This document shows, piece after piece, positions 1-32,000 of a stretch of DNA of 32,000 nt. Location: NCBI RefSeq assembly GCF_001017655.1, contig NZ_CP010904.1, positions 2,700,001 through 2,732,000 on the forward strand, read 5' to 3'. The notes beneath the pieces were generated by a model. That model had not been told where the DNA came from. It did not search any database and saw only the letters and a list, made by a program, of their open reading frames with translations. Within the stretch, counting starts at the first letter, position 1. Every line of letters starts with the position of its first letter. The position numbers were made by a program, and so were the translations under genes. Source of the DNA: Kiritimatiella glycovorans. Lineage in GTDB: Bacteria > Verrucomicrobiota > Kiritimatiellia > Kiritimatiellales > Kiritimatiellaceae.

Positions 1-138
1 TTCGGAAACATTGGCCGGTTCGACGGCGTGGGTAATCGGAAACCCCTTTTCCAACAGCGCATCCGTCAAATAAACCAGCGTATCGTCCAGCGATCCGCGC
101 ACATCGTCATTGCGAATGAATAGATTCTTTGCGCTCAT
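1..138 (-). CDS. Partial CDS (N-terminal 46 codons, runs off the window); hypothetical, possibly a carbohydrate-deacetylase-like protein
   Basis: Not in the ORF track. Hand translation of the minus strand from ATG 138..136: MSAKNLFIRNDDVRGSLDDTLVYLTDALLEKGFPITHAVEPANVSE, open to position 1. The ATG overlaps the TGA (137..135) of the upstream sulfotransferase as ATGA. The 'IRNDDV' Asp-Asp segment is reminiscent of deacetylase N-termini, but 46 aa is too little to assign a family. Confidence 0.3.
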   Translation of the reverse strand, partial: MSAKNLFIRNDDVRGSLDDTLVYLTDALLEKGFPITHAVEPANVSE

Positions 139-803
139 GCGGTACTCTCGGCAGTGCTCATCGGATAACCGAAATCAAAGTCGCGTTGATAGATCCCGTT
201 TACGATCGCCCTGGATTCGGAGTCGTAATATTCGTCCGCGTGCCCGTGGTCGGATTTTTGCGTGCGTATACTCAGGTCCAGCCCCAGATCCCTTGCGGCA
301 TCTTTCAGTTCCGTTTCAATTCGATACCACTTTTTGAGCCGTATGCGCGGCCCCGCAATCCGCTTTTTCAAGCGGGGATGAAGCATGAAGTGCTGGGGAT
401 AGAAATGCGGCTCTTCCCGGTAGATCGCGGGAAGCATGCGCACAAACTCAATAAAAGTCGTCTGAAGCAATCGCTCACGGATTTGCTCGAAATCATCCTG
501 CTCGCTCAAACCCAGAAAAGGGAAGGCAAGAACCTGGCACGTCTGCCACCCCGTATCCGGCGTTCTCTGCGGCGGACTGCGGCGAAACTTGTCGGCGAAA
601 CAGGAAACCACTCGATCATACGGATTGCGCACAAACATGTAATGTTCGCGCCGGTGACCGCGCAGCGCGTCAAAAAGCAGGGCGCGGGCGAACTGCACGT
701 TGCTCAACTCCTGAAGTCCCGCCTGCTTTGTGAGCGTGGTGTAAAGCACCTTGCAGCTTGTGGAGAGATAATAGTTTCTCTCAGGATGAATAAAGCGCGG
801 CAT
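135..803 (-). CDS. Sulfotransferase (family-2-like carbohydrate sulfotransferase)
   Basis: ORF 135..929 trimmed to Met43 (MPRFIHPE...). That ATG (803..801) overlaps the TGA (805..803) of the upstream glycosyltransferase as ATGA. It carries a 3'-phosphate-binding-type motif 'FVRNPYDRVVSCF' and 'HFYPQH', both typical of Sulfotransfer_2-type enzymes. Confidence 0.7.
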   Translation of the reverse strand: MPRFIHPERNYYLSTSCKVLYTTLTKQAGLQELSNVQFARALLFDALRGHRREHYMFVRNPYDRVVSCFADKFRRSPPQRTPDTGWQTCQVLAFPFLGLSEQDDFEQIRERLLQTTFIEFVRMLPAIYREEPHFYPQHFMLHPRLKKRIAGPRIRLKKWYRIETELKDAARDLGLDLSIRTQKSDHGHADEYYDSESRAIVNGIYQRDFDFGYPMSTAESTA

Positions 804-1945
804 CAGTCCTCCTGCACTTCCTGCGACGAGGCGGATTCGAATATCTTCCGATAGCGTTTTTCCTGCGCGGACCAGCTGTAGCGTGCTTGGAACCCGGGGG
901 TGATGTTCTCCGCAGGCGCGTCCTTCCATATCCGTTTGAGGGCCCCGCGCATGGCGTCTCCGGTGATCGAGTCCAGACAGATCCCTACGTGCTGGTCTTC
1001 GACCACCTGGTGCAAGCCCGGAAAATTATTGGTGATCGCCGGAAGGCCGCACAGAAAGTAATCATAGATCTTGTTCGGTGCGCAGTAATACTGGTTCAGA
1101 TTGTCGTTTCGGTAAAAGGCCAGCCCGGCGTCGTATCCGGAAAGGCATTCATACATCTCGGCGTGGGAAACCGGCGGCAGAATGCGCACATGATCGATAC
1201 CGTGTGCCGCAATTCTCTCGTGAAGCATGCGCTGATAATCCTCCGGCCCGAACCCTATGAAGTCGCAGCGGGCCTCGGCGGGATCCACCTCGGCAAAGGC
1301 GTCGATCACTTCCTCGCAGCAGCGTTCGGGCTGCAGCGCTCCGATATAGACGATATCGAGCGGAGCGGTGGTTTCACGACTCCTTTCAGGAACGGGCCGC
1401 GAGGGACGCGGCAGGTTTTCGATCAACACGTGCTGCGCACGGCTCCGGTAATGCGTACGGCAGAATTCGAGCCGGTTGCGCTCCGCATGCAGGATCACAT
1501 CCGCCGCGCGAAAAACCACGGCATGAACCGGACGCCACATCAGCTTTTTCAGCGGCCGCATGCCCATGTGCATGAACAATTCGTTGCAGTCAAAGATGTA
1601 TCGAGTCGCGCGAAGCCGTCGTCTTGCCAGCGCTCCGCTCAGTGCCCCGTAAAGTTCTTCGCATACAATAGCGTCGGGCTCGAGCTGTACGAGTTCCTCC
1701 GCTGCGCGAAGGTTCCAGCGCAGGTGGTTCAGGTAGTTGCGAACCTTGTTCGGGTGACGGCGCAGGGGTCGGTCGAGGATCTTGAAGTCGTACGTTGAAT
1801 CATCCGCTTCCTCGTCATCGGTGCGCCCATGCAGGACCGTCACGTCGTGGCCGGCCTGGCGCAGCGTGCCGATCTGCTTGAGCATCCTGCCCTTGTAGCG
1901 CAGCATGCCGACAAAAACGAAGACCACGTTTATCCGTCTGCCCAT
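803..1945 (-). CDS. Glycosyltransferase, GT-B fold (group 1 / GT4-like)
   Basis: ORF 803..1957. The internal ATG at 1945 is preceded by GGAG at about 6 nt spacing; 1957 is the alternative start. The N-terminus 'RINVVFVFVG' and the C-terminal 'GLPAITNNFPGLHQVVED' region match the GT-B nucleotide-sugar binding half. Confidence 0.8.
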   Translation of the reverse strand: MGRRINVVFVFVGMLRYKGRMLKQIGTLRQAGHDVTVLHGRTDDEEADDSTYDFKILDRPLRRHPNKVRNYLNHLRWNLRAAEELVQLEPDAIVCEELYGALSGALARRRLRATRYIFDCNELFMHMGMRPLKKLMWRPVHAVVFRAADVILHAERNRLEFCRTHYRSRAQHVLIENLPRPSRPVPERSRETTAPLDIVYIGALQPERCCEEVIDAFAEVDPAEARCDFIGFGPEDYQRMLHERIAAHGIDHVRILPPVSHAEMYECLSGYDAGLAFYRNDNLNQYYCAPNKIYDYFLCGLPAITNNFPGLHQVVEDQHVGICLDSITGDAMRGALKRIWKDAPAENITPGFQARYSWSAQEKRYRKIFESASSQEVQED

Positions 1946-3846
1946 GAAATACTCCATTCGAATGATTCATCTTCCGCCGCGTCTTCGATGACGCGCGTGA
2001 AGACGAGTGCGAAGGCGTCCTCAAACACCCCGTACGACGGGCTGTGCGCGAAAGGCTCTGATGCCACCTGCGCGCCGCGCGGAGGCAAAACCGTACAGCG
2101 GTGCGTTTCATCATCCTGTTCCACGATCCGCCAGCGGCCCTCGTCCTCGATGGCCTCGAGTCCCGGCGCGAGATGCAGCCGCCACGTCAGCCGGTCGCCC
2201 CGCCTCAGGCCGGTCAACCGGTCGCGCAGGCGCATTCCGTCGGCGGCGAGTTCGAACCGGCGTCCGCATTCCGTACCCGATCTTCCCAGCGAATGGAATC
2301 CCTGATGGACTGCCTCGAGCGCATTTTTTTCACACTCCACGACCCGGGTCTGCGTTTCATCCGGCATACCGAAAAGTGTCTCCGGAATCGAATTCTGTTC
2401 CGCCGCGTTGATGCTCAAAACATTGTGCGCCTGAGTCGAGCGGTAGCGGTTACGCACTTCGGGGTCGGAGGTATAGACGCCGGTTCCGCGGTCTACGAAC
2501 AAATCGCGGCCATTCAGATTCAGTTCAAACGAAAGCTGGTCGTTGTGCGCGTGCCCTCCGGCGTGGGCGAGCGGGCCGGCGCGCACCATCAGCCAGGCGG
2601 GTCCGAACCTCCGGATGAAAAAACCGCCCTGCTCATACGCGACCCAGCCTTCATGGCCGGAGGCCGTACCCGGACGCGTCCCGTCCAGAAGAACGCGATC
2701 CACACTTAAGGGCGTCCCGCCGGAATCGTCCGGTGGGAACAGGTACCGGTGGTCGCGCAGATCGGGTATCGGGGTGCCGAGCAGACGGCCGTCGTCCTGA
2801 TCCCCGATGAGCGGGGCATGGCCGTTCGGCTTGGTGTAATCACGTACGAAACCCTGCATGCGTTCGAGCCGGTCGTCGAACCCCTGCGAAAACGGGGTCC
2901 CGGCGCTGCGCGCAAGAGCGCGGCACCAGAGGAACATCTCCAGGGCGAGGCGGTGATAGCCCGTGGACCGTTCAAAATGAACCCCGTCGGCCGTGCACTG
3001 GTGCATCATCTCCGCTTCGAGCCGGTGTCGCGCGAACTGCGCCCAGCGGCGTCCCTCCGGGCGATCGCCGAAGAGGAGTCCGATCGTGTACAGCCCCGTC
3101 AGATCGGCGAGGAAGTGGTTGGCGCGCGAGGGGGAGCAGGGGCCCAGCCATTCCAGGTGCGTGCGGATCCACCTGCCGTGCGCGTGCAGCACGCCCGAAA
3201 AGCGCCGCCGAAACCCGGCAAGATCGGGGGCGTCCAGCGACTCGCTCATCAGCCCGTATCCCGCCAGCCAGTTGACGGCGCGGATCGCGACCTCCATGGC
3301 GCAGGCCCAGTTGACCCCATACCCGGGCGGGTTGGCCTCGATCCAGGACTCGACCTGCTCCCTGAATGCGCGGGGGTAACGCTCGTCTTCCTCCATCAGC
3401 CACGCCAGACCCATCGGAATCGCGTGTTGGAGCCGGCTCAGCTCCCAGGGGCCCTTGAGATCCGCTCCTTCAGGGGTCTGTTTTGCGGCATCAAGGTAGA
3501 GGAAATCCCGGCGCCAGCATGCACCGCTTCGGATATCGCGGTGCCAGTCGATCGCATTCTCGAAACGGTACGGGCCGCTTCCCAGCAGGTCGAAACAACC
3601 TTCCGCCGCACGCCCGGCCGCAGCGCGAACGGCGTCGCGCTCCTCCGCAGAAAGGGGCTCTTTCAGAAGGGCGCGCATTCTGGCCGGTGCGCCGAACGGC
3701 ACCCGCGCCGCAAAGCGGGCGAGACGCACATCCGCATCAACGTCGTCACGCACGGCGGGAAACATAATTTCCGGGCAGCGTCGCTCGAGGAATCGACGCG
3801 CGCGACGGGCGAGCTTATACCGGCATGTGACGGGGTGATGCGGCAT
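1930..3846 (-). CDS. Heparinase II/III-like (alginate-lyase-fold) family protein with no recognisable signal peptide
   Basis: ORF 1930..3858. The GTG at 3858 would overlap the upstream stop as GTGA; the ATG at 3846 is the alternative start used here. Family hallmarks are 'AGGHAHNDQLSFEL' (about 2541..2576) and 'RSTQAHNVLSIN'. The N-terminus MPHHPVTCRYKLARRARRFLERR is charged and not hydrophobic. Confidence 0.8.
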   Translation of the reverse strand: MPHHPVTCRYKLARRARRFLERRCPEIMFPAVRDDVDADVRLARFAARVPFGAPARMRALLKEPLSAEERDAVRAAAGRAAEGCFDLLGSGPYRFENAIDWHRDIRSGACWRRDFLYLDAAKQTPEGADLKGPWELSRLQHAIPMGLAWLMEEDERYPRAFREQVESWIEANPPGYGVNWACAMEVAIRAVNWLAGYGLMSESLDAPDLAGFRRRFSGVLHAHGRWIRTHLEWLGPCSPSRANHFLADLTGLYTIGLLFGDRPEGRRWAQFARHRLEAEMMHQCTADGVHFERSTGYHRLALEMFLWCRALARSAGTPFSQGFDDRLERMQGFVRDYTKPNGHAPLIGDQDDGRLLGTPIPDLRDHRYLFPPDDSGGTPLSVDRVLLDGTRPGTASGHEGWVAYEQGGFFIRRFGPAWLMVRAGPLAHAGGHAHNDQLSFELNLNGRDLFVDRGTGVYTSDPEVRNRYRSTQAHNVLSINAAEQNSIPETLFGMPDETQTRVVECEKNALEAVHQGFHSLGRSGTECGRRFELAADGMRLRDRLTGLRRGDRLTWRLHLAPGLEAIEDEGRWRIVEQDDETHRCTVLPPRGAQVASEPFAHSPSYGVFEDAFALVFTRVIEDAAEDESFEWSISWADG

Positions 3847-3854
3847 GGTTCTAT

Positions 3855-5996
3855 TCACGCGGTCAGCATATCGGCGGCCCGGCGCGAGATTCGCCAGCTC
3901 TCTTCCATCTCCGCGCGCGCGATCGGGAACCGCGTTCCGGACAGGATCTGATCGGCGAAATACATCAGCTCCGTGCGATGACCCTTCTCCGCCGACTTGT
4001 CCTCCCAGTCCGCAGCGACACCGAATCCCCGCACAGACTTATAATCGACCATTTCGATCATTTGTTCATCGAAGAAGACGTCCATCCGCTCTTTCGGCGC
4101 CTGTTTCGATCCGATCCCCGTATAGAGCAGCGAGGCGACCGAACCGTCCGCGTAGCTCACCGTGATCACCGCGTTGTCCTCCGCCCGCACGGAATCGGTA
4201 CGCGGCCGGACTCCGTCGACGCTCACCGATGCGGCGGGCGCGTTGATCAGGAAGCGAAAGAGGTCGAAGATATGGCACCCTTCACCGACAATGCGGCCGC
4301 CACCCTCTTCCGTATGCACCCAGTGATCATAGGGGATGTATCCGCCGTTCATCACGTAACGAATCATGACCGGATTGACGCGTCCCTCAAGCCGCGGCCG
4401 GATCTGCGCGATCGCCGGCGCGAAGCGACGGTTGAATCCGACCATGTAAGGTGCCTGCGTCTCGTCGAGCGCATTCGAAAGCATCTCGAACTGCGTCTCA
4501 GTCACCGCCATCGGTTTTTCGACAAAGACCGCCTTCCCGCGCCGCAGCGCCCGGGCCGCAATCTCCGCATGAGAGTCGTGCCGCGTCCCGATCAGCACCA
4601 CGTCCGCGTCGCCCTCCAGCACCCGCCGCGGATCGGTTTCAATGCTGATACGGTCGCGACCGAACATCCGGGCCGCTTTGCGGGCGGCGAGGGCGTTCTG
4701 ATCACAGATCGCCGTGACCTCGTAGCGCGCGCCGAGTTCCTTCAGATTCGGCACGTGCATGCCGCAGACGAACGACCCGGCCCCGATCAGTGCGGTCTTG
4801 AGCGGTTTCCCTGATGCCGGCGGGCTCCACTCCACCGCCGGGATGCTGACGGAGGCCTCCCCGCGCGGGATCTCTTCTTCAGAAGGTTCGTAGGTAAGCA
4901 ACACCAGCAGCGGCCGCTCCCCGCCCTTCAAGGCGCTGAATGCCTCCTGGGCGCGCTCCACGGGAAAGGTTTCACCGATGATCTCATGGAGCCTCACGGC
5001 ACCGGACGCGATCTGTTCCAGGTAGGCGCCCATGTTGCGCTGTTCAGTCCAGCGCACGTAAGCGTAAGGGTAGTCGTGGCCTTTGCGCTCGTACTGCTCG
5101 TCATAGCGTCCCGGACCGTAGGATGTGGACAAAACAAAATCCAGTTCCTTGCGGTACATCTCCTTGCGGTCCAGTTCCATGCCTGCCACGCCGACGAGCA
5201 CCACGCGTCCTTTGCGCCGTGACATGCGGAAGGCCTGCAGGAGCGGCTCGCTGGACGACGTCGCGGCGGTGACGATCACACGGTCGGCACCCTGTCCGTT
5301 GCAGTGGTGGGTCACCCGGCTCGCCGCATCCCCGTCCTCCGGATTGAACACCTTCTCCGCACCCAGTGCGCGGGCCTGTTCCAGTCGGCGCGCGTCGAGA
5401 TCCAGCCCGATTACACGGCAGCCCGACGCACGCAGGAGCTGGACGGTCAGCAGCCCGATCGCGCCGCAGCCTATAACGGCGACGAAATCCCCGAGCTGCA
5501 CTTCCGCGCGTCGCACGCCCTGCAGGGCGATGCCTCCGAGCGCGCATGTGCTCGCATCCTCCAGCGTGACCCCGTCGGGGATCCGCACCGCGAGATTCAC
5601 AGGGACCGACGCCATTTCCGCATGATTCGCATATCCCGCGCCGGCGATCGCCACGCGGTCGCCCGGCGCAAAACCTGTCACCCCCCGGCCTGCGTCGCTC
5701 ACAACGCCCGCTGCCGAGTACCCGCTGGCGGACTCCGCCCCCTGCTTCGCCTGCGCTTTGCGGAGAACCGTCAGCACCCCTTCCGTCTTCATCCGTTCGA
5801 ACGCCGCCTTCACTTTTTCGGGATGCTCGCGGATCTTGTCGAACAGCGTCTTTCCCGAGGCCGTAAGTCCCGCCATTTCCGTGCCGGGACTGATGCAGCT
5901 CGCCCGCACGTCGACGAGAAGCTGTCCGTCTTCCGCTGCCGGAGGAGGCACGTCCACCGGCCGAGCTGCGCCGCTGCTGAAAATAATACGCTTCAT
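3855..5996 (-). CDS. Bi-domain oxidoreductase (N-terminal zinc/MDR alcohol-dehydrogenase-like domain fused to a C-terminal Gfo/Idh/MocA domain)
   Basis: 713 aa. The MDR part has the Rossmann motif 'AVIGCGAIGLLTVQLL'. The second half starts 'ALIGAGSFVCGMHVPNL' and carries the Gfo/Idh/MocA 'VFVEKPMA' (EKP) motif. Confidence 0.85.
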   Translation of the reverse strand: MKRIIFSSGAARPVDVPPPAAEDGQLLVDVRASCISPGTEMAGLTASGKTLFDKIREHPEKVKAAFERMKTEGVLTVLRKAQAKQGAESASGYSAAGVVSDAGRGVTGFAPGDRVAIAGAGYANHAEMASVPVNLAVRIPDGVTLEDASTCALGGIALQGVRRAEVQLGDFVAVIGCGAIGLLTVQLLRASGCRVIGLDLDARRLEQARALGAEKVFNPEDGDAASRVTHHCNGQGADRVIVTAATSSSEPLLQAFRMSRRKGRVVLVGVAGMELDRKEMYRKELDFVLSTSYGPGRYDEQYERKGHDYPYAYVRWTEQRNMGAYLEQIASGAVRLHEIIGETFPVERAQEAFSALKGGERPLLVLLTYEPSEEEIPRGEASVSIPAVEWSPPASGKPLKTALIGAGSFVCGMHVPNLKELGARYEVTAICDQNALAARKAARMFGRDRISIETDPRRVLEGDADVVLIGTRHDSHAEIAARALRRGKAVFVEKPMAVTETQFEMLSNALDETQAPYMVGFNRRFAPAIAQIRPRLEGRVNPVMIRYVMNGGYIPYDHWVHTEEGGGRIVGEGCHIFDLFRFLINAPAASVSVDGVRPRTDSVRAEDNAVITVSYADGSVASLLYTGIGSKQAPKERMDVFFDEQMIEMVDYKSVRGFGVAADWEDKSAEKGHRTELMYFADQILSGTRFPIARAEMEESWRISRRAADMLTA

Positions 5997-6009: not shown

Positions 6010-6681
6010 TCAGGCTATGGCTTCCACGTAGAAAGACTCGTGGCTGCGTTCTTTAAGATCAATCAGCAGCTCAGCGTCGTCACCCTCCATAAAGGACTGT
6101 TGTGAAATCGAATCAAATCCCGCTTTGTCCAAGGCTTTCTCGAGAAGTTCATAATCATACATGCACTTGTGAGTCCCTCCGCAGGCCCCGAATATGCGGT
6201 TCAGCGACATTATGGGCGTGTATATGGGAAATATGCGCTTATGTTCATCTTCGCCGGGAAACCTGTATTTCGAAGGCTCGCTGCGTTTTTTCATGTATGT
6301 GCCGATATAGAAATCCGGATCGGGTAATACCACACGCAAGACGCCTCCTTTTTTGAGCGCTCTTTTACATTCCCGTAACAAATTCAGCCCCTCGCCTATA
6401 TCAAGATGCTCAAGGCAGTGGGAGCTATATATTCCCGATAAAGAATTGTTTTTTAAAGGAAGCGGATGGGAGAGGTCCCAGCATATGTCAATACCGGGGC
6501 TCCAATTTTAATCGAGGTTTATAAACTCTTCATGAATACTGCGACCACAGCCTAAATCCAGGTATTTGCAGCTTCTGAGTTTATCCTTATGGACGAAAAG
6601 CTTTCTGTTTCTAATCAGATCACTGATAAGAAAGCGAAGTCGCGCATATTCATGCCATGGCCTTATGAGCTTTTTCTTCAT
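6010..6681 (-). pseudogene. Class I SAM-dependent methyltransferase interrupted by an in-frame TAA
   Basis: Hand translation from ATG 6681: MKKKLIRPWHEYARLRFLISDLIRNRKLFVHKDKLRSCKYLDLGCGRSIHEEFINLD*NWSPGIDICWDLSHPLPLKNNSLSGIYSSHCLEHL...LKKGGVLRVVLPD... The stop TAA lies at 6510..6508 in the same frame, between SAM motif I (LDLGCG) and the rest of the domain. The ORF track only reports the 3' piece 6010..6381, which starts at TTG. Confidence 0.7.
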
Positions 6682-10736: not shown

Positions 10737-10770
10737 GTGAATGCTACAGGACCAAGAGATGGAAAGACGG

Positions 10771-20111: not shown

Positions 20112-20120
20112 CGTCCCCGA

Positions 20121-22727: not shown

Positions 22728-22753
22728 TCGCGGAAGGCATTTGTTGGATGGTT

Positions 22754-24085: not shown

Positions 24086-24525
24086 AGGTTTCACCAATCA
24101 GTCCCCCGCGCTTCTTACTCAGCTCGTCTTCCGCCGAGACCCCTTCGCTCCACGGGCATTACCCCGCTTCATCACTACTACGAGCCTCTCCGACTCCCGC
24201 ACGCGATCACCCCCGAGGTTATTGATTCCCCCACGGGCTTGTCGGCTTACCCGACATCACGGCGGGCCTCCCAAGTTCCTGGCTGTTCTTTCTGCGCGCG
24301 CCGTCTCTTGTTACCCCGGAGGGCCTTGCCGGTGCATATGACCGTTCCTTCCCGACAAGTGCTGGCTTCATCATATCCGATAGGCTGGCCGCCCTCGACT
24401 TGTGTAACGAGGCTGAATCAAGTTCGCTTTCGCTACGGCTCGCGCGTTCGCCTTCCCAGGCTTCGACGCCGGGGTTACCCCCGATCACCGCTGGGTCGGC
24501 TACATGTGCAACGATCAATTCACAC

Positions 24526-26085
24526 GACTGATAACCATATAGAGGTTCTTTGAAATAGACGCTGGTCGAATGCAACGTACTCTTTGTTTAAGCAAAAACG
24601 AAAGGAGTACCGGATATGCAAACGACCAGCGCAAAGGAATTGTACGCAGGAGCCGACCTGCATGGAAACAATGTTTTTCTCTCGATTTGCGACCGGGAAG
24701 GCACGGAAGTCTTCCGGCGGCGGGTACGAACCACGCTCGATGCAGTCAATGAGGCGATGGATCCCTACTGGCCGCAGGTTCAGGCGATGGGGATTGAGTC
24801 CACGTTCAACTGGTACTGGCTGGTGGACGGCTTGCGTGAGCAGAACCGGGACGTGCGATTGGGGAATCCGGCGAAGATGAAACAGTACAAGGGGTTGAAA
24901 CATGCCGATGACGCATCGGATGCTCGTTGGCTGGCCGAACTGCTCCGATTGGATATTTTCCCGGAGAGCTACATTTATCCGAAGGAGGTTCGTTCGATTC
25001 GCGACGCGCTTCGACGCCGACAGCTGTTTGTCAGGCGGCGCACCCAGGTTATGCTCAGCCTGCAAAGCCTGCTGGAGCGTTACGGATTCAAGGCGCCGGG
25101 ATCGCGTGCTCTTCAGCAGTGGACGCAGGCGGATGTCGAGGCGACGGGCCTTGATCCGTTCGTACAGCTTCAACTCCGCACGTTGCTTGAGGCGGTCCAG
25201 TGCAGTGAGCGGCTGGCCGGACAGATCGAATCAGCGGTGCTGGGGTTTATTGAGCCCAACCCATCGTTTGAACAGGTTCAGACCGTGCCGGGCATCGGGA
25301 AGGCGCTTGGGATGACCATCGTGCTTGAAAGCGGCAACTTCGCCCGCTTCCCGAACGCGGGATGCTACGCCTCCTACTGCCGCGCCGTCAAAAGTGAGCG
25401 AAGTTCCAACAGCAGGAAGAAAGGTGAGAACAATAAGCGCAACGGCAATCCGTTTCTCGCATGGGCTTTCGTTGAAGCCGCGAGCTTCGCTCCGCGCTTT
25501 TATCCGGAGATTCAATCCTGGTATGACCGGAAGAAGAAAAAGCGCAACGCGATTGTGGCGAAGAAGGCCTTGGCGGCAAAATTGTCCAAAGCCGTTTGGC
25601 ATGTCATGAACGGGGAGGAATATGTAATGGGAATGTTGTTTTAAAACCCGATGCTGCCGGGAACCGGCTAGGGGTCTGCTTAAATCAGCGGACTGATTGG
25701 AACCGGCGGCATCGCTTCAGCTTTTGCGGTCTGTCCTGTCGTCAGCCTTCAAGGGTCTGGAAGTCTGCGTGCAGATGAACCACGGTGACTGAATAGGCAA
25801 CGAGCGGGAACAAACGGTTTTCTGGCTCCAATACGAGAACGGGTGGCGGCCATGGATCTGGAAAAGATTCGCCCTCACCTAAAAACCAGATGGGTGACTG
25901 AAACAACCGCAAACGAAAACCACGGTACGGAACGCAACGGTTGAGGCGACGGTTGAATCCGATCAAAACAAGGCATGAAGGGAAGCCGCTTGATCAGCGG
26001 CACGAAGGGGACTTTTGTGTTTGACCGGAACCTCTAATGGGTGACTCCTTTCATTCAGTTAGAAACAGCCAAGCTTTGCTTGGCG
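24526..26085 (+). mobile_element. IS110-family element, approximate extent (left end possibly split by the group II intron and continuing at 22571..22624)
   Basis: The AT-rich 5' flank (24526..24615) and the 441-bp non-coding 3' flank (25645..26085) differ in composition from host genes. The right limit is inferred from where repeat copy E begins (26086), just after the GCCAAGC-TTT-GCTTGGC hairpin (26069..26085). No terminal inverted repeats were found, as expected for IS110. The ends are not verified. Confidence 0.35.
24616..25644 (+). CDS. IS110-family transposase (DEDD-type recombinase)
   Basis: 342 aa with a strong RBS (AAAGGAG 8 nt upstream of the ATG). The N-terminal part has 'YAGADLHGNNVFLS' and 'GIESTFNWYW' (DEDD_Tnp_IS110-like). 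The C-terminal part has 'VQTVPGIGKALGMTIVLESGNFARF' and 'KNNKRNGNPFLAWAF' (Transposase_20-like). Confidence 0.9.
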   Translation: MQTTSAKELYAGADLHGNNVFLSICDREGTEVFRRRVRTTLDAVNEAMDPYWPQVQAMGIESTFNWYWLVDGLREQNRDVRLGNPAKMKQYKGLKHADDASDARWLAELLRLDIFPESYIYPKEVRSIRDALRRRQLFVRRRTQVMLSLQSLLERYGFKAPGSRALQQWTQADVEATGLDPFVQLQLRTLLEAVQCSERLAGQIESAVLGFIEPNPSFEQVQTVPGIGKALGMTIVLESGNFARFPNAGCYASYCRAVKSERSSNSRKKGENNKRNGNPFLAWAFVEAASFAPRFYPEIQSWYDRKKKKRNAIVAKKALAAKLSKAVWHVMNGEEYVMGMLF

Positions 26086-26138
26086 CACCGGATCGCACGG
26101 ATGGGATGCGACATTGGAACGTGAACGGGGCGGGCAAA
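26086..26138. repeat. Intergenic repeat copy E (short variant, opposite orientation)
   Basis: CACCGGAT CGCACGGAT GGGATGCGACATTGGAACGTGAACGGGGCGGGCAAA aligns with the left arm of copy A (…GGCACCGAT CGCACGGAT GAGATACGGCATTGGAACGTGAACGGGGCGGGCAAA). It lies immediately 3' of the PIN gene stop (26156). Confidence 0.8.
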
Positions 26139-26155
26139 GACTCTTGTTGTTTTCG

Positions 26156-26533
26156 TTACCAGATCTCAGAGCGTATTCCTTCGTGACTTAAAAGCTTTTT
26201 GTCTTCTGTCAGCAAGATGCAATCCTGATTCATTGCCGACCCGGCGATGACTGCATCCGGAAGTTTGAGATTTTTCTCTGTACGCAGCGTGAGAATCTGC
26301 TCTTTCAACTGCCGATTTGCTGATGCCAAGTCAACAACATTGACCTTTTCCCTAAACTGTCCGAATAGTGCTTTGTCTTCGTCGGGCAGACCCGGAAAGG
26401 CAAGATATTCCAATTCACAAATCACGAAGGTGGCAACATAATCTGCCCCATTCAATATCTCCAGCAAGTTGTTGTTGCCGGCAAGCAATGCAATGATGGC
26501 ATTGGTATCGAGGAAATAACGTTTACCATTCAT
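26156..26533 (-). CDS. PIN-domain ribonuclease toxin (VapC-like)
   Basis: ORF 26156..26563 trimmed to MNGKRYFLDTNAII. The acidic PIN residues are in 'FLDTNA', 'ICELEY', 'PDAVIAGSA' and 'LLTEDKKL'. The ATG overlaps the antitoxin 3' end by 11 nt. Confidence 0.85.
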   Translation of the reverse strand: MNGKRYFLDTNAIIALLAGNNNLLEILNGADYVATFVICELEYLAFPGLPDEDKALFGQFREKVNVVDLASANRQLKEQILTLRTEKNLKLPDAVIAGSAMNQDCILLTEDKKLLSHEGIRSEIW

Positions 26534-26729
26534 CGCGCAGCTTCCGTTGTTCCTCCACCGCATTCCCCGACCACTTTAGCCGGCCGGACAGCGATGAAAA
26601 ATCATAGCTTCCCTTATCGCCGCTCGGAGTCAGCAGTGTGATTAGCACGTGCGCGACGGAAGGAAGTTTTTGAATCTCCGGACTTTTAACCTGCCCATTT
26701 TCTATATCTGCTTCTATCGTTGTGTACAT
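26523..26729 (-). CDS. Type II antitoxin (AF2212/DUF104-like N-terminus) partner of the PIN toxin
   Basis: 68 aa with an RBS (GAGG 8 nt upstream). The N-terminus 'MYTTIEADIENGQVKSPE..KLP' follows the DUF104 pattern (xIEAxYENGxxKP). The C-terminus is '...EEQRKLRDEW'. It overlaps the downstream toxin gene. Confidence 0.65.
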   Translation of the reverse strand: MYTTIEADIENGQVKSPEIQKLPSVAHVLITLLTPSGDKGSYDFSSLSGRLKWSGNAVEEQRKLRDEW

Positions 26730-26858
26730 ATTCTTACCTCATTGTAATGGCTGACTGGCTGCAATCTTCCTGGAGTTCAAATCAGAGGAAATTGCGTTAC
26801 GTTATGCCGGCCAGTCGAGCCGGGAGTAAGGGTGCCATTTTTGGTCAGGTCTGTGAAC

Positions 26859-26921
26859 TCATTCCGCCAGCATGAAGCTCCGCCGACTGCCGCGCCGCCG
26901 ATTATGAGATATGTTTTCATT
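26859..26921 (-). pseudogene. Relic 5' fragment of an SDR/epimerase-like gene (20 codons plus stop)
   Basis: Hand translation gives MKTYLIIGGAAVGGSFMLAE*. This aligns with the N-terminus of the 18965..19921 epimerase (MKKYLITGGAGFIGSHLVDA). Nucleotide similarity continues from the repeat leader module into the first roughly 30 coding nt: GATTATGAGATATGTTTTCAT here versus GGTTATGAGATATTTTTTCAT in the epimerase. Confidence 0.5.
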
Positions 26922-27095
26922 CACTCTCGCGAAGGCGCAAAGTTCGCAGAGGAATCAAATCCCGAACGTTACCGGGGCGGAGAAAGCCTGCAAACGGATT
27001 TGCGGGCCCTCCCCTCCCCGTTCACGTTTCCTTTGCGTCTCCGCGTCTTTGCGCGAGGCCTCTTTCTTATCCGTGCCATCGGTGCCATCCGTGGT
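26919..27095. repeat. Intergenic repeat copy D (leader module + hairpin + CCCCGTTCACGTT block + triple iteron)
   Basis: The leader module is CTCTCGCGAAGGCGCAAAGTTCGCAGAGGAATCAAATCCCGAACG. The hairpin is GCAAACGGATTTGC. The conserved block is CCCCGTTCACGTTTCCTTTGCGTCTCCGCGTCTTTGCGCGAGGCC. The iterons are ATCCGTGCC ATCGGTGCC ATCCGTGGT (27069..27095). Its iteron end is the near-exact reverse complement of the left end of copy A. Confidence 0.85.
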
Positions 27096-27130
27096 CCTCT
27101 TCCTTCCGTGCGCATTCGATATGAAAGAAG

Positions 27131-27541
27131 TTATTCGCTCGTCTTGCCCGCCAGGGTCTGCTCCAGGTCCAGGAAGGCGGGATGGAATTCCGTGCGCACG
27201 TCGTGAACGATTTCGCGGGCCGCGGCCTCGTTACAGGTATGGGATGTCCTGTTGCGGCTCTCGATCATCTTCATCCATACATGCCCATCGCTGAACAGCC
27301 CCTCTGAAAAGGCCTTGCGGAAGGTGTCGCGCGACCCGATCAGTTCCGCGACGCCCTGATATTCGAGGTAATCGCGCAACGTGTTCCAGGCGAGTTCATA
27401 CGTGTATTCAAACGCCTTGACCAGCCCCTGTTCCTCCAGCTTGTTCAGCTCTTTCTGCTCAAGAAATTCGCTGAGCTGGTTGAGTGCTTTCCGGTAATTC
27501 GAAAAACGTTGCTGCCAGCGTATATCCCTTTCTTCAGTCAC
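27131..27541 (-). CDS. HEPN-domain protein, HI0074-family nucleotidyltransferase substrate-binding protein (toxin of an HEPN/MNT pair)
   Basis: 136 aa. 'IRWQQRFSNYRKAL', 'FEYTYELAWNTLRDYLE' and the RX4H HEPN motif 'RNRTSH' are present. Confidence 0.85.
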   Translation of the reverse strand: MTEERDIRWQQRFSNYRKALNQLSEFLEQKELNKLEEQGLVKAFEYTYELAWNTLRDYLEYQGVAELIGSRDTFRKAFSEGLFSDGHVWMKMIESRNRTSHTCNEAAAREIVHDVRTEFHPAFLDLEQTLAGKTSE

Positions 27542-27854
27542 GGCGGACTATCTCCTTTCCCGCGCGATCGATGTGCTCGATCAGATCAGGATTATCTATC
27601 CGATCGTATATGGACAGGTCGATCTCGTAGGGCAACAGCAACTCGTCCATCCGAAGCATAAGATCGGTCAGTATTTCAGGAGAGAGGTTCGGACCCTTCA
27701 GCGTCAGGTCGATGTCGGACCCCGGACGATGCGTGCCTTTTGCCCGTGATCCGTAGAGGATTACCTCTTTAACCTCAGGTTCCGATCCGAAGATGGACAT
27801 GATTCGTTCCATCTCGTCGGGATCAAGCCCGGGTATGGTGCCGACCGTATTCAT
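27534..27854 (-). CDS. Minimal nucleotidyltransferase (MNT, HI0073-like antitoxin)
   Basis: 106 aa with 'ILYGSRAKGTHRPGSDIDLTL' (GS-x9/10-DxD polymerase-beta-type NTase motif). It overlaps the HEPN gene by 8 nt. Confidence 0.85.
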   Translation of the reverse strand: MNTVGTIPGLDPDEMERIMSIFGSEPEVKEVILYGSRAKGTHRPGSDIDLTLKGPNLSPEILTDLMLRMDELLLPYEIDLSIYDRIDNPDLIEHIDRAGKEIVRRD

Positions 27855-27924: not shown

Positions 27925-29208
27925 TTACAACCGCCCGTCGACCTTCGACTTGTCGAGGATGCCTTTCACGTCGTAGACGACCCCGTCGCCGGACGTCAGC
28001 GCGCGGATCGCGTCCGCGCCCATCTCCGCGAACTGGCGGTGGCCGACGGCGACGACGACCGCATCGTAAGAACCTTTCTTCAGCGAGGCGGGGTCGCTGA
28101 TCAGATCAATGCCGTAGGAGATCCTGGCTTCTTCGGCGAGGCACCAGGGATCACAGACCTCCACCTCGACCCCGAAATCCGTCAGCTCCGAAATGATGTC
28201 CACGACGCGCGTGTTGCGCAGGTCGGGGCAGTTGTCCTTGAACGTCAGCCCCATCACCAGGACGCGCGAGCCGACGACCTGAATCCGCTTCCTGAGCATC
28301 AGCTTGACGACCCGGTCAGCGATATAGCGTCCCATGGCATCGTTCATCCGCCGCCCGGCCAGGATCATCTCGGGATGATGCCCCGTCTGCTGCGCCTTGT
28401 ACGTCAGGTAGTACGGGTCCACACCGATGCAGTGGCCGCCGACCAGCCCCGGCCGGAACGGAAGAAAATTCCATTTCGTCCCCGACGCCTCCAGCACCTC
28501 CAGCGTGTCGATTCCCAGGCGATTGAAGATCAGCGACAACTCGTTGACCAGCGCGATATTCACGTCACGCTGCGTGTTTTCGATCACCTTCGCCGCCTCC
28601 GCCACGCGGATCGATGAAGCGCGGTGCGTACCGGCCGACACGATCGAGGCGTACAGCGCATCCACGAATTCCGCCGCCTCCGGGGTGGAGCCGGAGGTGA
28701 CCTTCACGATCGAGTCGAGCCGATGCGCCTTGTCGCCGGGATTGATCCGCTCGGGACTGTAGCCGACCGTGAAGTCCTCATTGAAGCTCAGACCGGAGTG
28801 CTCCTCGAGCACGGGAACGCAGACCTCCTCCGTCGCGCCGGGATAGACCGTCGATTCATAGATCACCACATCGCCTTCAGCCAGCACGCCGCCCACCGTC
28901 TCGCTCGCGCCGATGAGCGGGCGCAGGTCGGGACGCCGCGCTTCGTCGACCGGCGTGGGCACGGTCACGATGTAGACATCGCAGTCGCGGATCGATTCGG
29001 GGTCGGCCGTATACGAAAGCTTCGCCGCGGAGGCCAGCTCTTCCGACGAACACTCCAGCGTATTGTCCTCGCCGCGCTGAAGCTCCGCGATGCGAGCCTC
29101 CTTGAGGTCAAAACCGACGACCTCATGCCTGCGCCCGAAGGCCACCGCCAGGGGCAGGCCGACATATCCGAGCCCGATCACACAGATTTTCGGGGAATCG
29201 ATTTTCAT
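27925..29208 (-). CDS. UDP-N-acetyl-hexosamine 6-dehydrogenase (TviB/WbpO/CapL-type nucleotide-sugar dehydrogenase)
   Basis: 427 aa with the N-terminal '[18 protein letters not shown]', '[11 protein letters not shown]', '[11 protein letters not shown]' and the catalytic Cys region '[14 protein letters not shown]'. By my recollection it is collinear along its length with Vi-antigen TviB. A WecC-like ManNAc specificity cannot be excluded. Confidence 0.9.
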
Positions 29209-29351: not shown

Positions 29352-31079
29352 CTACGACTCATCCACGCCGATGTAGCCTTCCTTCTCGAGGTGGAGGATC
29401 ACCTGCTGGGCTTCTTCCTCGGGGGTCATGTCAGTGGTATCCAGCGCCATTTCGGCGTCCGCCGGTTCCTCGTACGGGTCGGAGATGCCGGTGAACTCCT
29501 TGATGATGCCGGCGCGTGCCTTGGCGTAGAGACCTTTCCGGTCGCGCTGTTCGCAGATCTCGAGCGGTGTGGCCACGTGCACGAGGCAGAAGCCGCCGTA
29601 GCCCTCGATCATCCGGCGCACTTCCTGGCGCACGGCGTTGTAGGGGGCGATCGGCGCGCAGATGGCGATGCCGCCGTTTTTGGTGATCTCGGAGGCGACG
29701 AACCCGATGCGTCGGATATTGATGTCGCGGTGTTCCTTCGAGAAGCCCAGTTCCGACGACAGGTTCTTGCGCACGATGTCGCCGTCGAGCAGCGTCACCG
29801 GACGCCCGCCCATCTCGAGCAGCTTGACGAGCAGCGCGTTGGCGATCGTCGACTTACCCGAACCGGACAGCCCCGTGAAGAACACCGTGAAGCCCTGTTT
29901 ATGTTTCGGCGGATGCGTCTTGCGCAGCTCCTGCGCGACCTCCGGAAACGTGAACCACTCCGGGATCTCGCGGCCTTCCGCCAGCCGTTCGCGCAGCTCG
30001 GTCCCCGAAATCGAAACGGTCTTCGTCCCCTCGGGGACCTCGTCGAGCGGGATGTACTTATCCTCGTCCGGCGCGAAGACCATCAGCTTGAACGGCACCA
30101 TCGCCACGCCCAGCTCCTCTTCGTGTTCGCGGAGCAGCTCCTGCGCGTCGTACGGTCCGTAGAACGGCGTGCCCGAGGAGTCCTTGCCGGGGCCGGCGTG
30201 GTCGCGGCCGACGATCAGGTGCGTGCAGCCGTGGTTCTTGCGAATGATCGCATGCCAGACCGCCTCGCGCGGGCCGCCCATCCGCATGGCCAGCGGGAGC
30301 AGCGAGAGCGCCACGGTATCCTTGGGATAATGCGGCAGCAGCGCCTTGTAGCACCGCACGCGCGTATAATGGTCGACATCGCCGGGTTTGGTCATCCCGA
30401 CCACCGGATGGATCAGCAGGTTCGCCTCGGTCTCCTTCGCCGCGCGCAGGGTCAGTTCCTGGTGCGCCCGGTGCATCGGGTTGCGCGTCTGGAAGGCGAC
30501 CACCTTGCGCCACCCCTTGCGCCTGAAGTCGGCGCGGAGTTCGGCCGGAGTCAACCGGATATCCTTGGAGTCGTAATGGACCGGCATGCACACCCCTTCG
30601 ACCTCGCCGCCGACATACCATCCGTTCGTGCTGTTCATCAGGTAGTCGACGCCGGGGTGCTCGCTGTTGTCGGTACCGAAGACCTGCTTCGCCTCCTCCG
30701 CGCGGTCCGGCTGCCAGACGTCGCTCACGTTCAGGACCGCCAGCATGACGCCTTCCGGGTCGCGCAGCGCGAGTTTCGCGCCGGACTCGAGCCCCTTCGC
30801 CGTTTCCTCGTCCACGTCGAGCATGATCGGCATGGGCCACAGCGTACCGTCCTCCAGCCGCATCGAGCTGCAGACGGACTCGTGATCAGCCTTGCCCATG
30901 AACCCGCGCAGCGGCGAAAAGCTGCCGTTCATCAGCAGTTCGAGATCGCACATCTGCCGGCCGTTCAGATCCCAGGAAGGCCATTCCTTCGAATGCGCCT
31001 TCAACTCGGCCGCGCGTTCTTCCGATACCATCAGGTCGATGAGTTCACCCCCGTGCGGGGCGATGAGATGATCGCTCAT
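29352..31079 (-). CDS. Bifunctional sulfate adenylyltransferase (ATP sulfurylase) / adenylylsulfate kinase, i.e. a PAPS synthase
   Basis: 575 aa. The sulfurylase motifs are 'AFQTRNPMHRAH' and 'IVGRDHAGPG'. The C-terminal APS-kinase P-loop is 'VFFTGLSGSGKSTIA'. Confidence 0.9.
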   Translation of the reverse strand: MSDHLIAPHGGELIDLMVSEERAAELKAHSKEWPSWDLNGRQMCDLELLMNGSFSPLRGFMGKADHESVCSSMRLEDGTLWPMPIMLDVDEETAKGLESGAKLALRDPEGVMLAVLNVSDVWQPDRAEEAKQVFGTDNSEHPGVDYLMNSTNGWYVGGEVEGVCMPVHYDSKDIRLTPAELRADFRRKGWRKVVAFQTRNPMHRAHQELTLRAAKETEANLLIHPVVGMTKPGDVDHYTRVRCYKALLPHYPKDTVALSLLPLAMRMGGPREAVWHAIIRKNHGCTHLIVGRDHAGPGKDSSGTPFYGPYDAQELLREHEEELGVAMVPFKLMVFAPDEDKYIPLDEVPEGTKTVSISGTELRERLAEGREIPEWFTFPEVAQELRKTHPPKHKQGFTVFFTGLSGSGKSTIANALLVKLLEMGGRPVTLLDGDIVRKNLSSELGFSKEHRDINIRRIGFVASEITKNGGIAICAPIAPYNAVRQEVRRMIEGYGGFCLVHVATPLEICEQRDRKGLYAKARAGIIKEFTGISDPYEEPADAEMALDTTDMTPEEEAQQVILHLEKEGYIGVDES

Positions 31080-31344
31080 TACTTCTTTCCTTTCTTTTCA
31101 ACTTTGAAACACGCGACACCCGCGTATTTCCCTCATTTACAGATCGTTCATACTCAATCGCGGGAGCATGACCGAAATGGACCGGAATGCCGAGACGATA
31201 GTCCGCGGCGCTTATCCGGTTCAAACTCCGTGCCCGGAACCCCTTTTCAGAATCCGGACCCCTTTATTCCAACGACTCTCTTTCCGAAGCAAATAAAATC
31301 AGGCTCACAAGTCTGCCTCAGCAGATCCCTCTGCAGGAATCGGG

Positions 31345-32000
31345 TCAGAAGGACCAGATCACCGGTGCGAGGCCGACGCTGATGACGCCGAACAGCACAT
31401 TGAGCGCGAACCCGACCCGGAAGTAATCCGTAAAGCGGTAGCCCCCCGGCCCGTAGACCATCAGGTTGGTCTGGTAGCCGACCGGCGTGGCGAAACTTGC
31501 CGAGGCGGCCACGGCCACGCACATCACGAAGGGCAGCGGGCTGACGCCCAGGTTGCCGGCCATGGTCACCGCGACCGGAAAGATCAGCGCGGCCGCGGCG
31601 TTGTTCGTGATCAGCTCGGTGAACAGCGAGGTCGCCACGTAAACCCCCGCCAGCGCCAGCCACGGGTGGTTCCCCGCCGCGGCCAGCAGGCCTTCCGCGA
31701 TCCATCCGGCGGCTCCGGTTTGGTCGAGCGCGCGCCCCATCGCCAGCGCCGAGGCGATCACCAGCAGCACACTCCACTCGATGTTCGTGCGCGCCCGGCC
31801 CGGCGAGCAGCACCCGGTCAGCAGCATCAGCGCCGCGGCCAGCATCGCCGCCTGGAGCATGCTCAGCCAGCCGAACGCCGCGGCGGCCACCATGCCGGCA
31901 AAAATCAATCCGGCCGCGGGCGCGCGCGAAAACCGCACGGGCCGGGAGTCCTCGACTTCGCTGACGAGGTAGAAATCGCGCGAATCGCGCTGCCGCGGCG
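31345..32000 (-). CDS. SLC13/DASS-family anion permease, C-terminal part (gene continues beyond the window); candidate sulfate transporter
   Basis: ORF 31345..31938 starts at a GTG, but the frame stays open to 32000 (...DFYLVSEVEDSRPVRFSRAPAAGL...). The product is hydrophobic, with 'ELITNNAAAALIFPV' and 'ASFATPVGYQTNLMVYGPGGY', typical of the second transport-domain repeat of SLC13 permeases. Confidence 0.75.
   Translation of the reverse strand, partial: PRQRDSRDFYLVSEVEDSRPVRFSRAPAAGLIFAGMVAAAAFGWLSMLQAAMLAAALMLLTGCCSPGRARTNIEWSVLLVIASALAMGRALDQTGAAGWIAEGLLAAAGNHPWLALAGVYVATSLFTELITNNAAAALIFPVAVTMAGNLGVSPLPFVMCVAVAASASFATPVGYQTNLMVYGPGGYRFTDYFRVGFALNVLFGVISVGLAPVIWSF

Follow-up and report, generated by a model that had tools for sequence, protein, structure and literature searches.

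A predicted Wzx/Wzy-type locus for a sulfated heteropolysaccharide in Kiritimatiella glycovorans, with three sulfotransferase genes and an adjoining PAPS-synthesis cassette

Introduction

Does Kiritimatiella glycovorans carry, in a single stretch of its genome, the genes for making a sulfated polysaccharide, and does that stretch also supply the activated sulfate? The question is raised by 32,000 nucleotides of contig NZ_CP010904.1 (positions 2,700,001 to 2,732,000; this whole stretch is called the window here), for which a first-pass annotation made from the letters alone had proposed a self-contained locus for a sulfated, uronic-acid-type polysaccharide, with sulfate import, synthesis of the sulfate donor 3'-phosphoadenosine 5'-phosphosulfate (PAPS), three sulfotransferases, and Wzx/Wzy assembly. 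Our analysis indicates that the window is probably a Wzx/Wzy-type heteropolysaccharide locus whose product receives its sulfate in the cytoplasm, while the repeat units are still lipid linked and have yet to be flipped by Wzx.

K. glycovorans visibly forms extracellular polysaccharide (EPS), and sulfotransferases are never mentioned in its description by Spring et al. in 2016 (PMC5148204). For the related genus Pontiella, Van Vliet et al. in 2020 reported an N-sulfated, glycosaminoglycan (GAG)-like EPS with 75 to 80% N-sulfation and proposed a cluster with one sulfotransferase for it; the prokaryotic enzymes for sulfated GAG-like polymers (the GAG sulfotransferases) were called unknown there (PMC7356697).

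Results

Three predicted PAPS-dependent sulfotransferases

Since the window is GC-rich, many of its long open reading frames (ORFs) are spurious antisense frames, and the real genes were assigned by family searches (Pfam and NCBIfam, with Rfam for RNA). These searches bore out the claim of three PAPS-type sulfotransferases. ST1, ST2, and ST3 all scored above the Pfam gathering cut-offs (for PF03567, PF13469, and PF00685, respectively), ST1 being the weakest, and the PAPS-binding motifs, i.e., the 5'-phosphosulfate-binding (5'-PSB) and 3'-phosphate-binding (3'-PB) motifs, were retained alongside a candidate catalytic base. A hydropathy scan found neither a transmembrane segment nor a signal peptide in any of the three.

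Among solved structures, the top match of ST3 (100% identical to NCBI protein P0001) was a bacterial structural-genomics sulfotransferase (3rnl, E value of 5.5e-25), and the next-best relatives were the heparan-sulfate (HS) 3-O-sulfotransferases (3-OST) 3-OST-1, -3, and -5 (E value of about 1e-12) and the N-sulfotransferase (NST) domain of the N-deacetylase/N-sulfotransferase (NDST) NDST1 (E value of 6e-5). The 5'-PSB loop of ST3, EKAGTT, aligned to the RKGGT loop of the 3-OST enzymes, and both the position of the catalytic Glu base and the 3'-PB motif RDPVERLIS aligned with those of the HS sulfotransferases. Judged by its sequence, ST3 is the clearest of the three sulfotransferases and is related to the HS 3-O- and N-sulfotransferases. 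ST2 carries GRSGTT as its 5'-PSB motif and IRNPYAVANS as its 3'-PB motif, and its similarity to PDB entries was weak; it lies on the strand opposite that of its neighbors, inside a low-GC patch (0.52) which it shares with a methyltransferase pseudogene.

ST1 (100% identical to NCBI protein P0121, annotated as "sulfotransferase family 2") belongs to a small family of proteins of about 220 amino acids, for which an exhaustive HMMER search returned 326 representatives among 1.84 billion. In an alignment of 76 sequences of this family, K18, R59, S67, and H133 were invariant, the pattern expected for the 5'-PSB Lys, the 3'-PB Arg and Ser, and the catalytic His. The 3'-PB motif of ST1 itself reads RNPYDRVVS, and that of the family profile, RNPYDRLVS, was aligned onto the 3'-PB motif of SULT2A1 with an E value of 0.04. 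ST1 is probably a divergent sulfotransferase, predicted to be PAPS dependent and cytoplasmic.

Precursor and assembly genes, and a proposed pathway

The other genes named in the first-pass annotation were likewise found where it had put them, by matches to profile hidden Markov models (HMMs): four GT4 glycosyltransferases (GTs), Wzx, an AsnB-type amidotransferase, TviB, a TviC-like epimerase, WecB, Sat/CysC, and the permease. From the family membership of TviB, the TviC-like enzyme, and WecB, we infer N-acetylglucosaminuronic or N-acetylgalactosaminuronic acid (GlcNAcA/GalNAcA) and N-acetylmannosamine (ManNAc) as building blocks; amidation of a uronic acid is a possible role of the AsnB-type enzyme. 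The proposed Wzx/Wzy assembly holds for Wzx, which, besides its Pfam matches (PF13440 at 288.6 bits), scored 330 bits with NF058658 (O-glycosylation flippase; below the cut-off) and 229 bits with NF007773. The Wzy-like protein was assigned by topology and position: it has about 10 hydrophobic segments and a large loop at about residues 290 to 383 in the hydropathy plot, and its gene stands between GT genes, near wzx.

In the pathway that we propose, UDP-GlcNAcA/GalNAcA and UDP-ManNAc would be provided by TviB, WecB, and the TviC-like epimerase, and the repeat unit would be assembled by the four GT4 enzymes while attached to undecaprenyl phosphate, on the cytoplasmic side of the membrane. There, its modification would fall to the AsnB-type amidotransferase, a heparinase III-like enzyme, a CE4 de-N-acetylase, a bi-domain oxidoreductase, and a CapK-like ligase. 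The unit would also be sulfated, by as many as three soluble sulfotransferases that depend on PAPS, with PAPS coming from the neighboring Sat/CysC, fed by the DASS permease. Wzx would flip the unit, the Wzy-like protein would then polymerize it, and EPS, a capsule, or a different surface glycan could result, with the initiating transferase and the export genes lying outside the window. PAPS is made in the cytoplasm. The repeat unit of the Wzx/Wzy pathway is finished on its lipid carrier at the cytoplasmic face and flipped afterwards (PMC8205485). Since the sulfotransferases have no transmembrane segment or signal peptide, PAPS is cytoplasmic, and the repeat unit is completed before flipping, sulfation and the other modifications of the unit most likely precede export by Wzx.

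Homologues of ST1 and ST3 in other polysaccharide loci

When the genomic surroundings of homologues were inspected, both ST1 and ST3 turned out to have relatives in polysaccharide loci of other genomes. The ST1 homologue P0122 (59% identity) comes from metagenomic contigs with a GC content of about 37% (L081 type), which carry ADH/Gfo (43% identity, in L081 and L083), a beta-helix protein, Wzy_C, Wzx, Sulfotransfer_3, ST1, heparinase II/III (30%), GT4, CE4, GT, CapK-like ligase, and PGA_cap. A second contig (L084) has the order GT4a (49%), ST1, CE4, GT, CapK-like ligase, and PGA_cap, and there, too, CE4 abuts ST1. The homologues of ST3 (43 to 47% identity) stood inside compact Wzx/Wzy operons in all three contexts examined. 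Two of these operons encode a protein resembling a polysaccharide copolymerase (PCP), a kinase-like ATPase, Bac_transf, Wzx, Wzy_C, WecG, an epimerase, and the sulfotransferase; the third encodes a MurJ-like protein, Wzy_C, a beta-helix protein, the sulfotransferase, two GT4 enzymes, an epimerase, WecG, and Wzz. Of the computational arguments for an action of these enzymes on the glycan, this recurrence of the ST1 and ST3 families in polysaccharide loci is the strongest.

Two further observations were made on these relatives. The 59% identity of ST1 to homologues from organisms of about 37% GC, versus about 60% GC in the window, is unusually high for a 222-amino-acid accessory enzyme. Right-handed beta-helix proteins (Pel9A-like or NosD-like) recur in related loci that contain sulfotransferase genes (L081, 2699-3961; L085, 16766-18082; L087, 5355-8288), but no such protein is encoded in the window; a role in modifying the polymer, as lyases or epimerases, is conceivable.

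A permease and a PAPS-synthesis enzyme adjoin the locus

A co-oriented pair of genes for a DASS/SLC13-type permease and for PAPS synthesis adjoins the polysaccharide genes, as had been claimed. The fused ATP sulfurylase/adenosine 5'-phosphosulfate (APS) kinase, Sat/CysC, has PUA_2, ATP-sulfurylase, and APS_kinase domains; its sulfurylase half keeps the motifs QTRNP, HRAH, and GRD and its kinase half the P-loop GLSGSGKS and LDGD, so both activities should be intact. The sat/cysC gene lies downstream of the permease gene and is separated by 144 bp from tviB, which has the same orientation; together with the three sulfotransferase genes it falls within 31 kb, with a 6.4-kb mobile insertion between them.

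We then surveyed 80 diverse genomes with a homologous DASS permease, looking for sulfotransferase genes within 10 kb. An APS-kinase gene stood beside the permease in 24 of the 80, usually with CysQ and CysD. A Kiritimatiellales metagenome-assembled genome (MAG; L007) and a Pontiella MAG (L012) have the orthologous permease followed by CysQ, CysD, and CysN/CysC, with GlmS, RmlA/B/D, and Gmd in the flanks. No sulfite or PAPS reductase was seen beside the cassette in the window or in either MAG. The same permease-Sat/CysC pair as in K. glycovorans, at 63% identity, was found in Aquisalimonas lutea (L010), near TviB- and TviC-like genes; since this closest pair found is gammaproteobacterial, it gives a hint of horizontal transfer of the cassette. 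As a side observation, the DASS-CysQ-CysD-CysN/CysC order of the two MAGs is matched in K. glycovorans by a fused Sat/CysC after the orthologous permease, which amounts to a non-orthologous replacement.

Genes for further modification of the glycan

Four genes had escaped the first-pass annotation: those for the heparinase-like protein, the Zn-ADH/Gfo oxidoreductase, the CapK-like ligase, and the CE4 de-N-acetylase at the left edge. The full-length CE4 protein, P0147, scored 27.4 bits with PF01522 (cut-off, 23.1), has no signal peptide or transmembrane segment, and shares with 19 homologues the invariant signature D11-D12, H68..H72, and H226-H227-R228. The AlphaFold2 (AF2) model of P0147 (predicted local distance difference test [pLDDT] score of 92.5) gave 72 CE4 matches in the PDB at an E value of ≤1e-3, the best TM-score, 0.66, being to Salmonella ArnD, whose substrate is an undecaprenyl-phosphate-linked sugar. 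The CE4 family profile found no match among PDB sequences, and NDST1 was absent from the top 50 fold matches of the model.

The CE4 gene begins with its ATG at 138, immediately next to the stop codon of ST1 (135-137), and this arrangement suggested de-N-acetylation followed by N-sulfation, an NDST-like idea that would fit the degree of N-sulfation of the Pontiella EPS. It was tested on 54 metagenomic loci with a CE4 family gene, scanned by profile HMMs. The near-constant partners of CE4 turned out to be a GT, a CapK-like ligase, and PGA_cap, while a sulfotransferase stood beside CE4 in about 5 of about 25 loci, those closest to K. glycovorans only. An NDST-like coupling of CE4 and sulfotransferase was therefore rejected as a general rule; given these partners, the free amine more likely meets an adenylate-forming ligase, for re-N-acylation, than a sulfotransferase. 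N-sulfation in the K. glycovorans locus is possible, but it is not supported as the function of the CE4 family.

We also observed a four-gene module of CE4, a GT4-like GT (about 389 amino acids), a CapK-like protein (about 430 amino acids, with no Pfam match), and PGA_cap (CapA-like) in some 20 metagenomic polysaccharide loci, not all of which have sulfotransferases (L081, L084, L085, and L090-L126). One possibility is that the module de-N-acetylates and then re-N-acylates a lipid-linked sugar. The CapK-like protein of the window is 23% identical to that of the module.

The heparinase-like protein matched heparinase III structures with E values of about 1e-15 and has a conserved YH block; unlike catabolic heparinases, it has no signal peptide and no hydrophobic N terminus or segment. 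It is a candidate uronate-acting lyase or epimerase-type modifier, as C5 proton abstraction could support either activity. The glucuronyl C5-epimerase family (including GLCE) had no match in the window, and a literature search on what heparinase II/III-like proteins do in biosynthetic loci turned up nothing useful. The methyltransferase-like gene, neither half of which matched a Pfam family, has a single in-frame TAA and would be either a pseudogene or the result of a sequencing error.

Layout of the locus and the mobile block

The GC content of the window is about 0.60, with dips to 0.52 to 0.53 at 6 to 8 kb and 25 to 28 kb. Nearly all genes are on the minus strand, so that transcription runs from high to low coordinates, in the order permease, Sat/CysC, TviB, mobile block, WecB, TviC-like, ST3, Wzx, AsnB-type, GT4d, Wzy-like, GT4c, GT4b, CapK-like, ST2 (plus strand), methyltransferase pseudogene, Zn-ADH/Gfo, heparinase-like, GT4a, ST1, and CE4 (Table 1). 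Scans of the window for promoters and terminators did no better than on shuffled sequence.

Table 1. Features of the 32,000-nucleotide window of K. glycovorans
Feature	Coordinates	Strand	Evidence or remark
CE4/NodB-type de-N-acetylase, 5' end (46 codons) of the 261-aa P0147; runs off the left edge	1..138	-	Identical to P0147 N terminus; PF01522
ST1, divergent Sulfotransfer_2-family protein, 222 aa	135..803	-	PF03567, 29.2 bits (cut-off 22)
GT4a, GT4 glycosyltransferase	803..1957	-	PF13692, PF13579, PF00534
Heparinase II/III-like (PL12-like) protein	1930..3858	-	PF07940, 110 bits; PF16889, 95.7 bits
Fused Zn-ADH/Gfo-Idh-MocA bi-domain oxidoreductase	3855..5996	-	PF00107, PF01408; putative sugar-modifying
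S-adenosylmethionine (SAM)-methyltransferase-like pseudogene as sequenced	6010..6681	-	LDLGCG motif; in-frame TAA 6508-6510
ST2, Sulfotransfer_3/1-family	6936..7880	+	PF13469, 51.4 bits (cut-off 27); PF00685, 40.9 bits (cut-off 22)
CapK/coenzyme-F390-synthetase-like adenylate-forming ligase	8212..9558	-	Weak NCBIfam matches to AMP-dependent ligases
GT4b, GT4 glycosyltransferase	9555..10868	-	PF00534, 123 bits
GT4c, GT4 glycosyltransferase	10771..11973	-	PF00534, 69.8 bits; start probably near 11850
Wzy-like polymerase candidate, 487 aa	11843..13306	-	Topology and position
GT4d, GT4 glycosyltransferase	13296..14648	-	PF13692, 105 bits; probable start 14528, overlapping AsnB stop
AsnB-type glutamine amidotransferase	14528..16417	-	PF00733, 273 bits; TIGR01536, 461 bits (cut-off 267); probable start MCGF at 16372
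Wzx, MOP-family flippase	16387..17856	-	PF13440, 288.6 bits; PF01943, 105.5 bits
ST3, Sulfotransfer_1/3 enzyme	17863..18696	-	PF00685, 65.7 bits (cut-off 22); PF13469, 58.9 bits (cut-off 27)
TviC/WbpP/GalE-type UDP-sugar 4-epimerase	18965..19921	-	PF01370, 221.8 bits; NF011728 (TviC), 200 bits, below equivalog cut-off
WecB, non-hydrolysing UDP-GlcNAc 2-epimerase	20121..21260	-	TIGR00236, 307.9 bits (cut-off 210)
Mobile/foreign block, outside the polysaccharide system	21446..27854	both	Pfam, Rfam, repeats, GC drop to about 0.53
AAA_14/DUF4143 ATPase (in block)	21446-22570	-	Pfam
Group II intron, complete (in block)	22625-24531	-	RF02005, 70.2 bits (24303-24531); RF00029, 50.5 bits (22625-22729)
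Intron-encoded reverse transcriptase/maturase (in block)	22754-24097	-	RVT_1 and GIIM domains
IS110 transposase (in block)	24616-25644	+	Pfam
PIN toxin and small partner, toxin-antitoxin pair (in block)	26156-26729	-	Pfam
Duplicated 5' fragment of tviC (in block)	26777-26920	-	MKTYLIIGGA... versus MKKYLITGGA... of tviC
HepT-like (NTase_sub_bind)/MntA-type nucleotidyltransferase pair (in block)	27131-27854	-	Pfam
TviB/WbpO-type UDP-GlcNAc 6-dehydrogenase	27925..29208	-	NF011729, 594 bits (cut-off 592); three UDPG_MGDP_dh domains
Sat/CysC, fused ATP sulfurylase/APS kinase (PAPS synthetase)	29352..31079	-	NF004040, 960 bits (cut-off 669)
DASS/SLC13-type (DASS/CitMHS) anion permease, C-terminal 217 aa; candidate sulfate importer	31348..>32000	-	PF03600, 102 bits; PF00939, 41.9 bits

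A block of about 6.4 kb of mobile DNA, which the first-pass annotation missed, splits the locus, lying between genes and not within any of them. A 634-amino-acid plus-strand ORF (22649-24553) was considered as a gene and rejected, being antisense to the group II intron and its reverse transcriptase and having no family match. An intergenic element of about 130 to 240 nucleotides is repeated with 76 to 94% identity at 18783-19020, 19891-20131, 21309-21439, and 26890-27115, with a fragment at 26091-26138. Its copies lie upstream of ST3, tviC, and wecB as well as inside the mobile block, and two of them bracket the block. The element holds a long hairpin, CGTGAACGGGG...CCCCGTTCACG, with an RNA fold z-score of -2.5; a regulatory 5' region, a repeat resembling a miniature inverted-repeat transposable element (MITE), and a recombination scar are all conceivable. 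The presence in the block of the tviC fragment together with its upstream element suggests recombination at the repeated element as the route by which the block came in.

Discussion

Several observations weigh against a sulfated Wzx/Wzy product. ST1 is weak at 29 bits, and its 5'-PSB site is non-canonical, with the invariant K18 followed by TT without a Gly; a search of PDB sequences gave no significant match, and neither did Foldseek with its AF2 model (pLDDT of 94.9), where 47 of the 50 best weak matches were nevertheless sulfotransferases. The Wzy-like protein had no Pfam or NCBIfam match even at an E value of ≤1. Among the window proteins we found no initiating phosphoglycosyltransferase (Bac_transf or Glycos_transf_4; WbaP/WecA type) and no export pair of a PCP and an outer-membrane polysaccharide export (OPX) protein (Wzz, GNVR, Poly_export; Wzc/Wza), in agreement with the first-pass annotation; the PCP/OPX genes may sit elsewhere in the genome, as in the synechan system. 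No published chemistry of the K. glycovorans polymer was found. The 6.4-kb mobile block and the methyltransferase pseudogene make expression of the locus uncertain. The last of these points would fit a remnant, decaying or mosaic and gained by horizontal transfer, which does not function as a unit any more. In its favor are also the nature of the block (a group II intron, IS110, two toxin-antitoxin pairs, and an AAA/DUF4143 gene), the duplicated tviC 5' fragment and the repeated intergenic elements, the position of ST2 on the opposite strand in a low-GC patch, and the closeness of ST1 to genes of 37%-GC organisms. We hold such a remnant to be very improbable: none of the 18 core biosynthetic ORFs is truncated, their motifs are intact, many neighboring genes overlap or abut as in working operons, and the insertion of the block disrupted none of them.

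The sulfate supply is more evenly balanced. There is somewhat less than an even chance that the permease and Sat/CysC are a general cassette for sulfate uptake and activation, serving assimilation and all sulfation and merely adjoining the locus, a situation with which sulfation of the polymer would still be compatible. Cassettes of this kind are widespread, and only 1 of the 24 in our survey had a detectable sulfotransferase within 10 kb; the enrichment of polysaccharide genes beside them was weak and not significant (9/20 versus 6/31; Fisher P = 0.065). In Pontiella, moreover, cysDNCHIJKM underlies demonstrated sulfate assimilation, and in the window tviB and sat/cysC are cut off from the remaining locus by the mobile block. 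On the other hand, sat/cysC has the orientation of tviB, which is a polymer-precursor gene, and lies close to it, no sulfite or PAPS reductase accompanies the cassette in the window or the two MAGs, such cassettes occur inside the sulfated capsular polysaccharide (CPS) clusters of Cobetia and Vibrio (as second copies in Vibrio), and K. glycovorans was cultivated with sulfide and cysteine (PMC5148204). The cassette would supply ST1 to ST3 either way, and it probably serves the rest of the cell too, not the polymer alone. The epithet "self-contained" is thus partly supported: adjacency holds, and the word describes a position, not a proven dedication; a dedicated PAPS branch was neither confirmed nor excluded by the survey of 80 loci. 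As to the product, it is unlikely that the sulfotransferases decorate an O-antigen-like lipopolysaccharide chain, a glycolipid, or a protein-attached glycan in place of a free EPS or capsule. The best NCBIfam model of Wzx, the O-glycosylation flippase, counts against a free EPS, as the glycan may decorate proteins or lipid; Wza and Wzc were not found in the window, characterized bacterial sulfotransferases act mostly on glycolipids or lipo-oligosaccharides (PMC11625862), and one ST3 homologue sits in an operon with WecG and Wzz. Yet the other ST3 homologues are accompanied by genes of the EPS/CPS type (PCP-like protein, tyrosine-kinase-like ATPase, Bac_transf), K. glycovorans forms EPS aggregates (PMC5148204), and its relatives excrete sulfated EPS (PMC7356697). 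A sulfated heteropolysaccharide remains our preferred, and probable, product.

A more far-reaching version of this preferred reading, which we regard as improbable, is that the product is a GAG analogue, i.e., a polymer of N-acetylhexosamine (HexNAc) and HexNAc-uronate modified in an HS-like manner on undecaprenyl-linked units, by CE4 and N-sulfation (ST1), O-sulfation (ST3), and C5 epimerization or trimming (heparinase III-like protein). If true, prokaryotes would have a counterpart of the Golgi HS pathway that works on a lipid carrier, and the enzymes behind the N-sulfated EPS of Kiritimatiellia would be identified. The GAG-like biosynthetic logic seen by the first-pass annotation is upheld for the modification enzymes, with ST3 resembling 3-OST and NST, but not for assembly, which is of the GT4/Wzy repeat-unit type.

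Few bacterial polysaccharide sulfotransferases have been characterized, and the locus gives a compact group of testable candidates from an organism that is in culture and has a 3-Mb genome; they may include the enzymes by which Kiritimatiellia make sulfated GAG-like polymers. If its product is sulfated, the enzymes might be useful for the microbial production of sulfated glycans, and a specialist degrader of sulfated polymers would also make them.

With respect to precursors, the closest parallels are presumably the GalNAcA pathways of the Vi antigen and P. aeruginosa O6 type (TviB/TviC, WbpO/WbpP, WbpS), on which the locus enzymes would suggest UDP-GalNAcA, possibly its amide. The locus differs from these systems, which have no sulfation, in having neither a TviE-type polymerase nor Vex export genes, and its TviC match is far below the equivalog cut-off. 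The HS enzymes of eukaryotes (3-OST, NDST) resemble ST3 in their conserved catalytic positions, and the locus adds to this likeness a de-N-acetylase and a protein of uronate-lyase/epimerase fold. The HS pathway, however, uses a processive GAG synthase and sulfates the polymer in the lumen, whereas GT4/Wzy machinery on a lipid carrier and cytoplasmic modification of repeat units are predicted here; no processive bifunctional GAG synthase for HexNAc and uronate was found in the window, only GT4 and Wzx/Wzy-type machinery.

Sulfated polysaccharide loci of bacteria are not as rare and poorly characterized as the first-pass annotation had it, since examples from Cobetia (PMC11766843), Vibrio (PMC11641403), Synechocystis (synechan; PMC8205485), and Pontiella (PMC7356697) are already published. 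The synechan xss cluster of Synechocystis PCC 6803, whose Wzx/Wzy-plus-sulfotransferase design is genetically proven, shares with the K. glycovorans locus Wzx/Wzy, several glycosyltransferases, and embedded sulfotransferases of different subfamilies, and its outer-membrane export gene lies elsewhere in the genome. The xss cluster encodes two sulfotransferases together with a PCP and a priming GT, lacks PAPS genes, and yields a product rich in neutral sugars; the K. glycovorans locus has three sulfotransferases and an adjacent PAPS cassette, with PCP and priming GT not in the window. Pontiella sulfatireligans F21, of the same class Kiritimatiellia (a sister family), is similar at the level of gene classes, having a sulfotransferase among GT2 and GT4 genes, and in its genus an N-sulfated, hexosamine-containing EPS was chemically measured (PMC7356697); its cluster differs in having a single sulfotransferase and an aminotransferase, with no PAPS genes described.

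In the CPS clusters of Cobetia marina KMM 1449 (cysNC-cysD-cysQ, a sulfate permease, and a sulfotransferase; PMC11766843) and Vibrio sp. KMM 8419 (sulfotransferases and second copies of cysC/N/D; PMC11641403), sulfotransferase and PAPS genes stand together within a polysaccharide cluster as they do here, in Cobetia with a sulfate permease as well. Those systems use ABC-transporter (Kps) assembly, CysDN/CysC, and CysQ and make Rha/Glc/Man-type polymers whose sulfated structures were solved chemically; the K. glycovorans locus has Wzx/Wzy, a fused Sat/CysC, HexNAc(A) precursors, and no CysQ seen in the window. Since this architecture has already been published for a few marine bacteria (Cobetia and Vibrio) and for Synechocystis, the locus is not a new kind of system. 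It stands apart by the phylum in which it occurs, the fusion of Sat with CysC, a set of three sulfotransferases that represent three Pfam families and include a 3-OST/NST-like one, the HexNAc-uronate precursors, and the genes for CE4 and a heparinase III-like protein.

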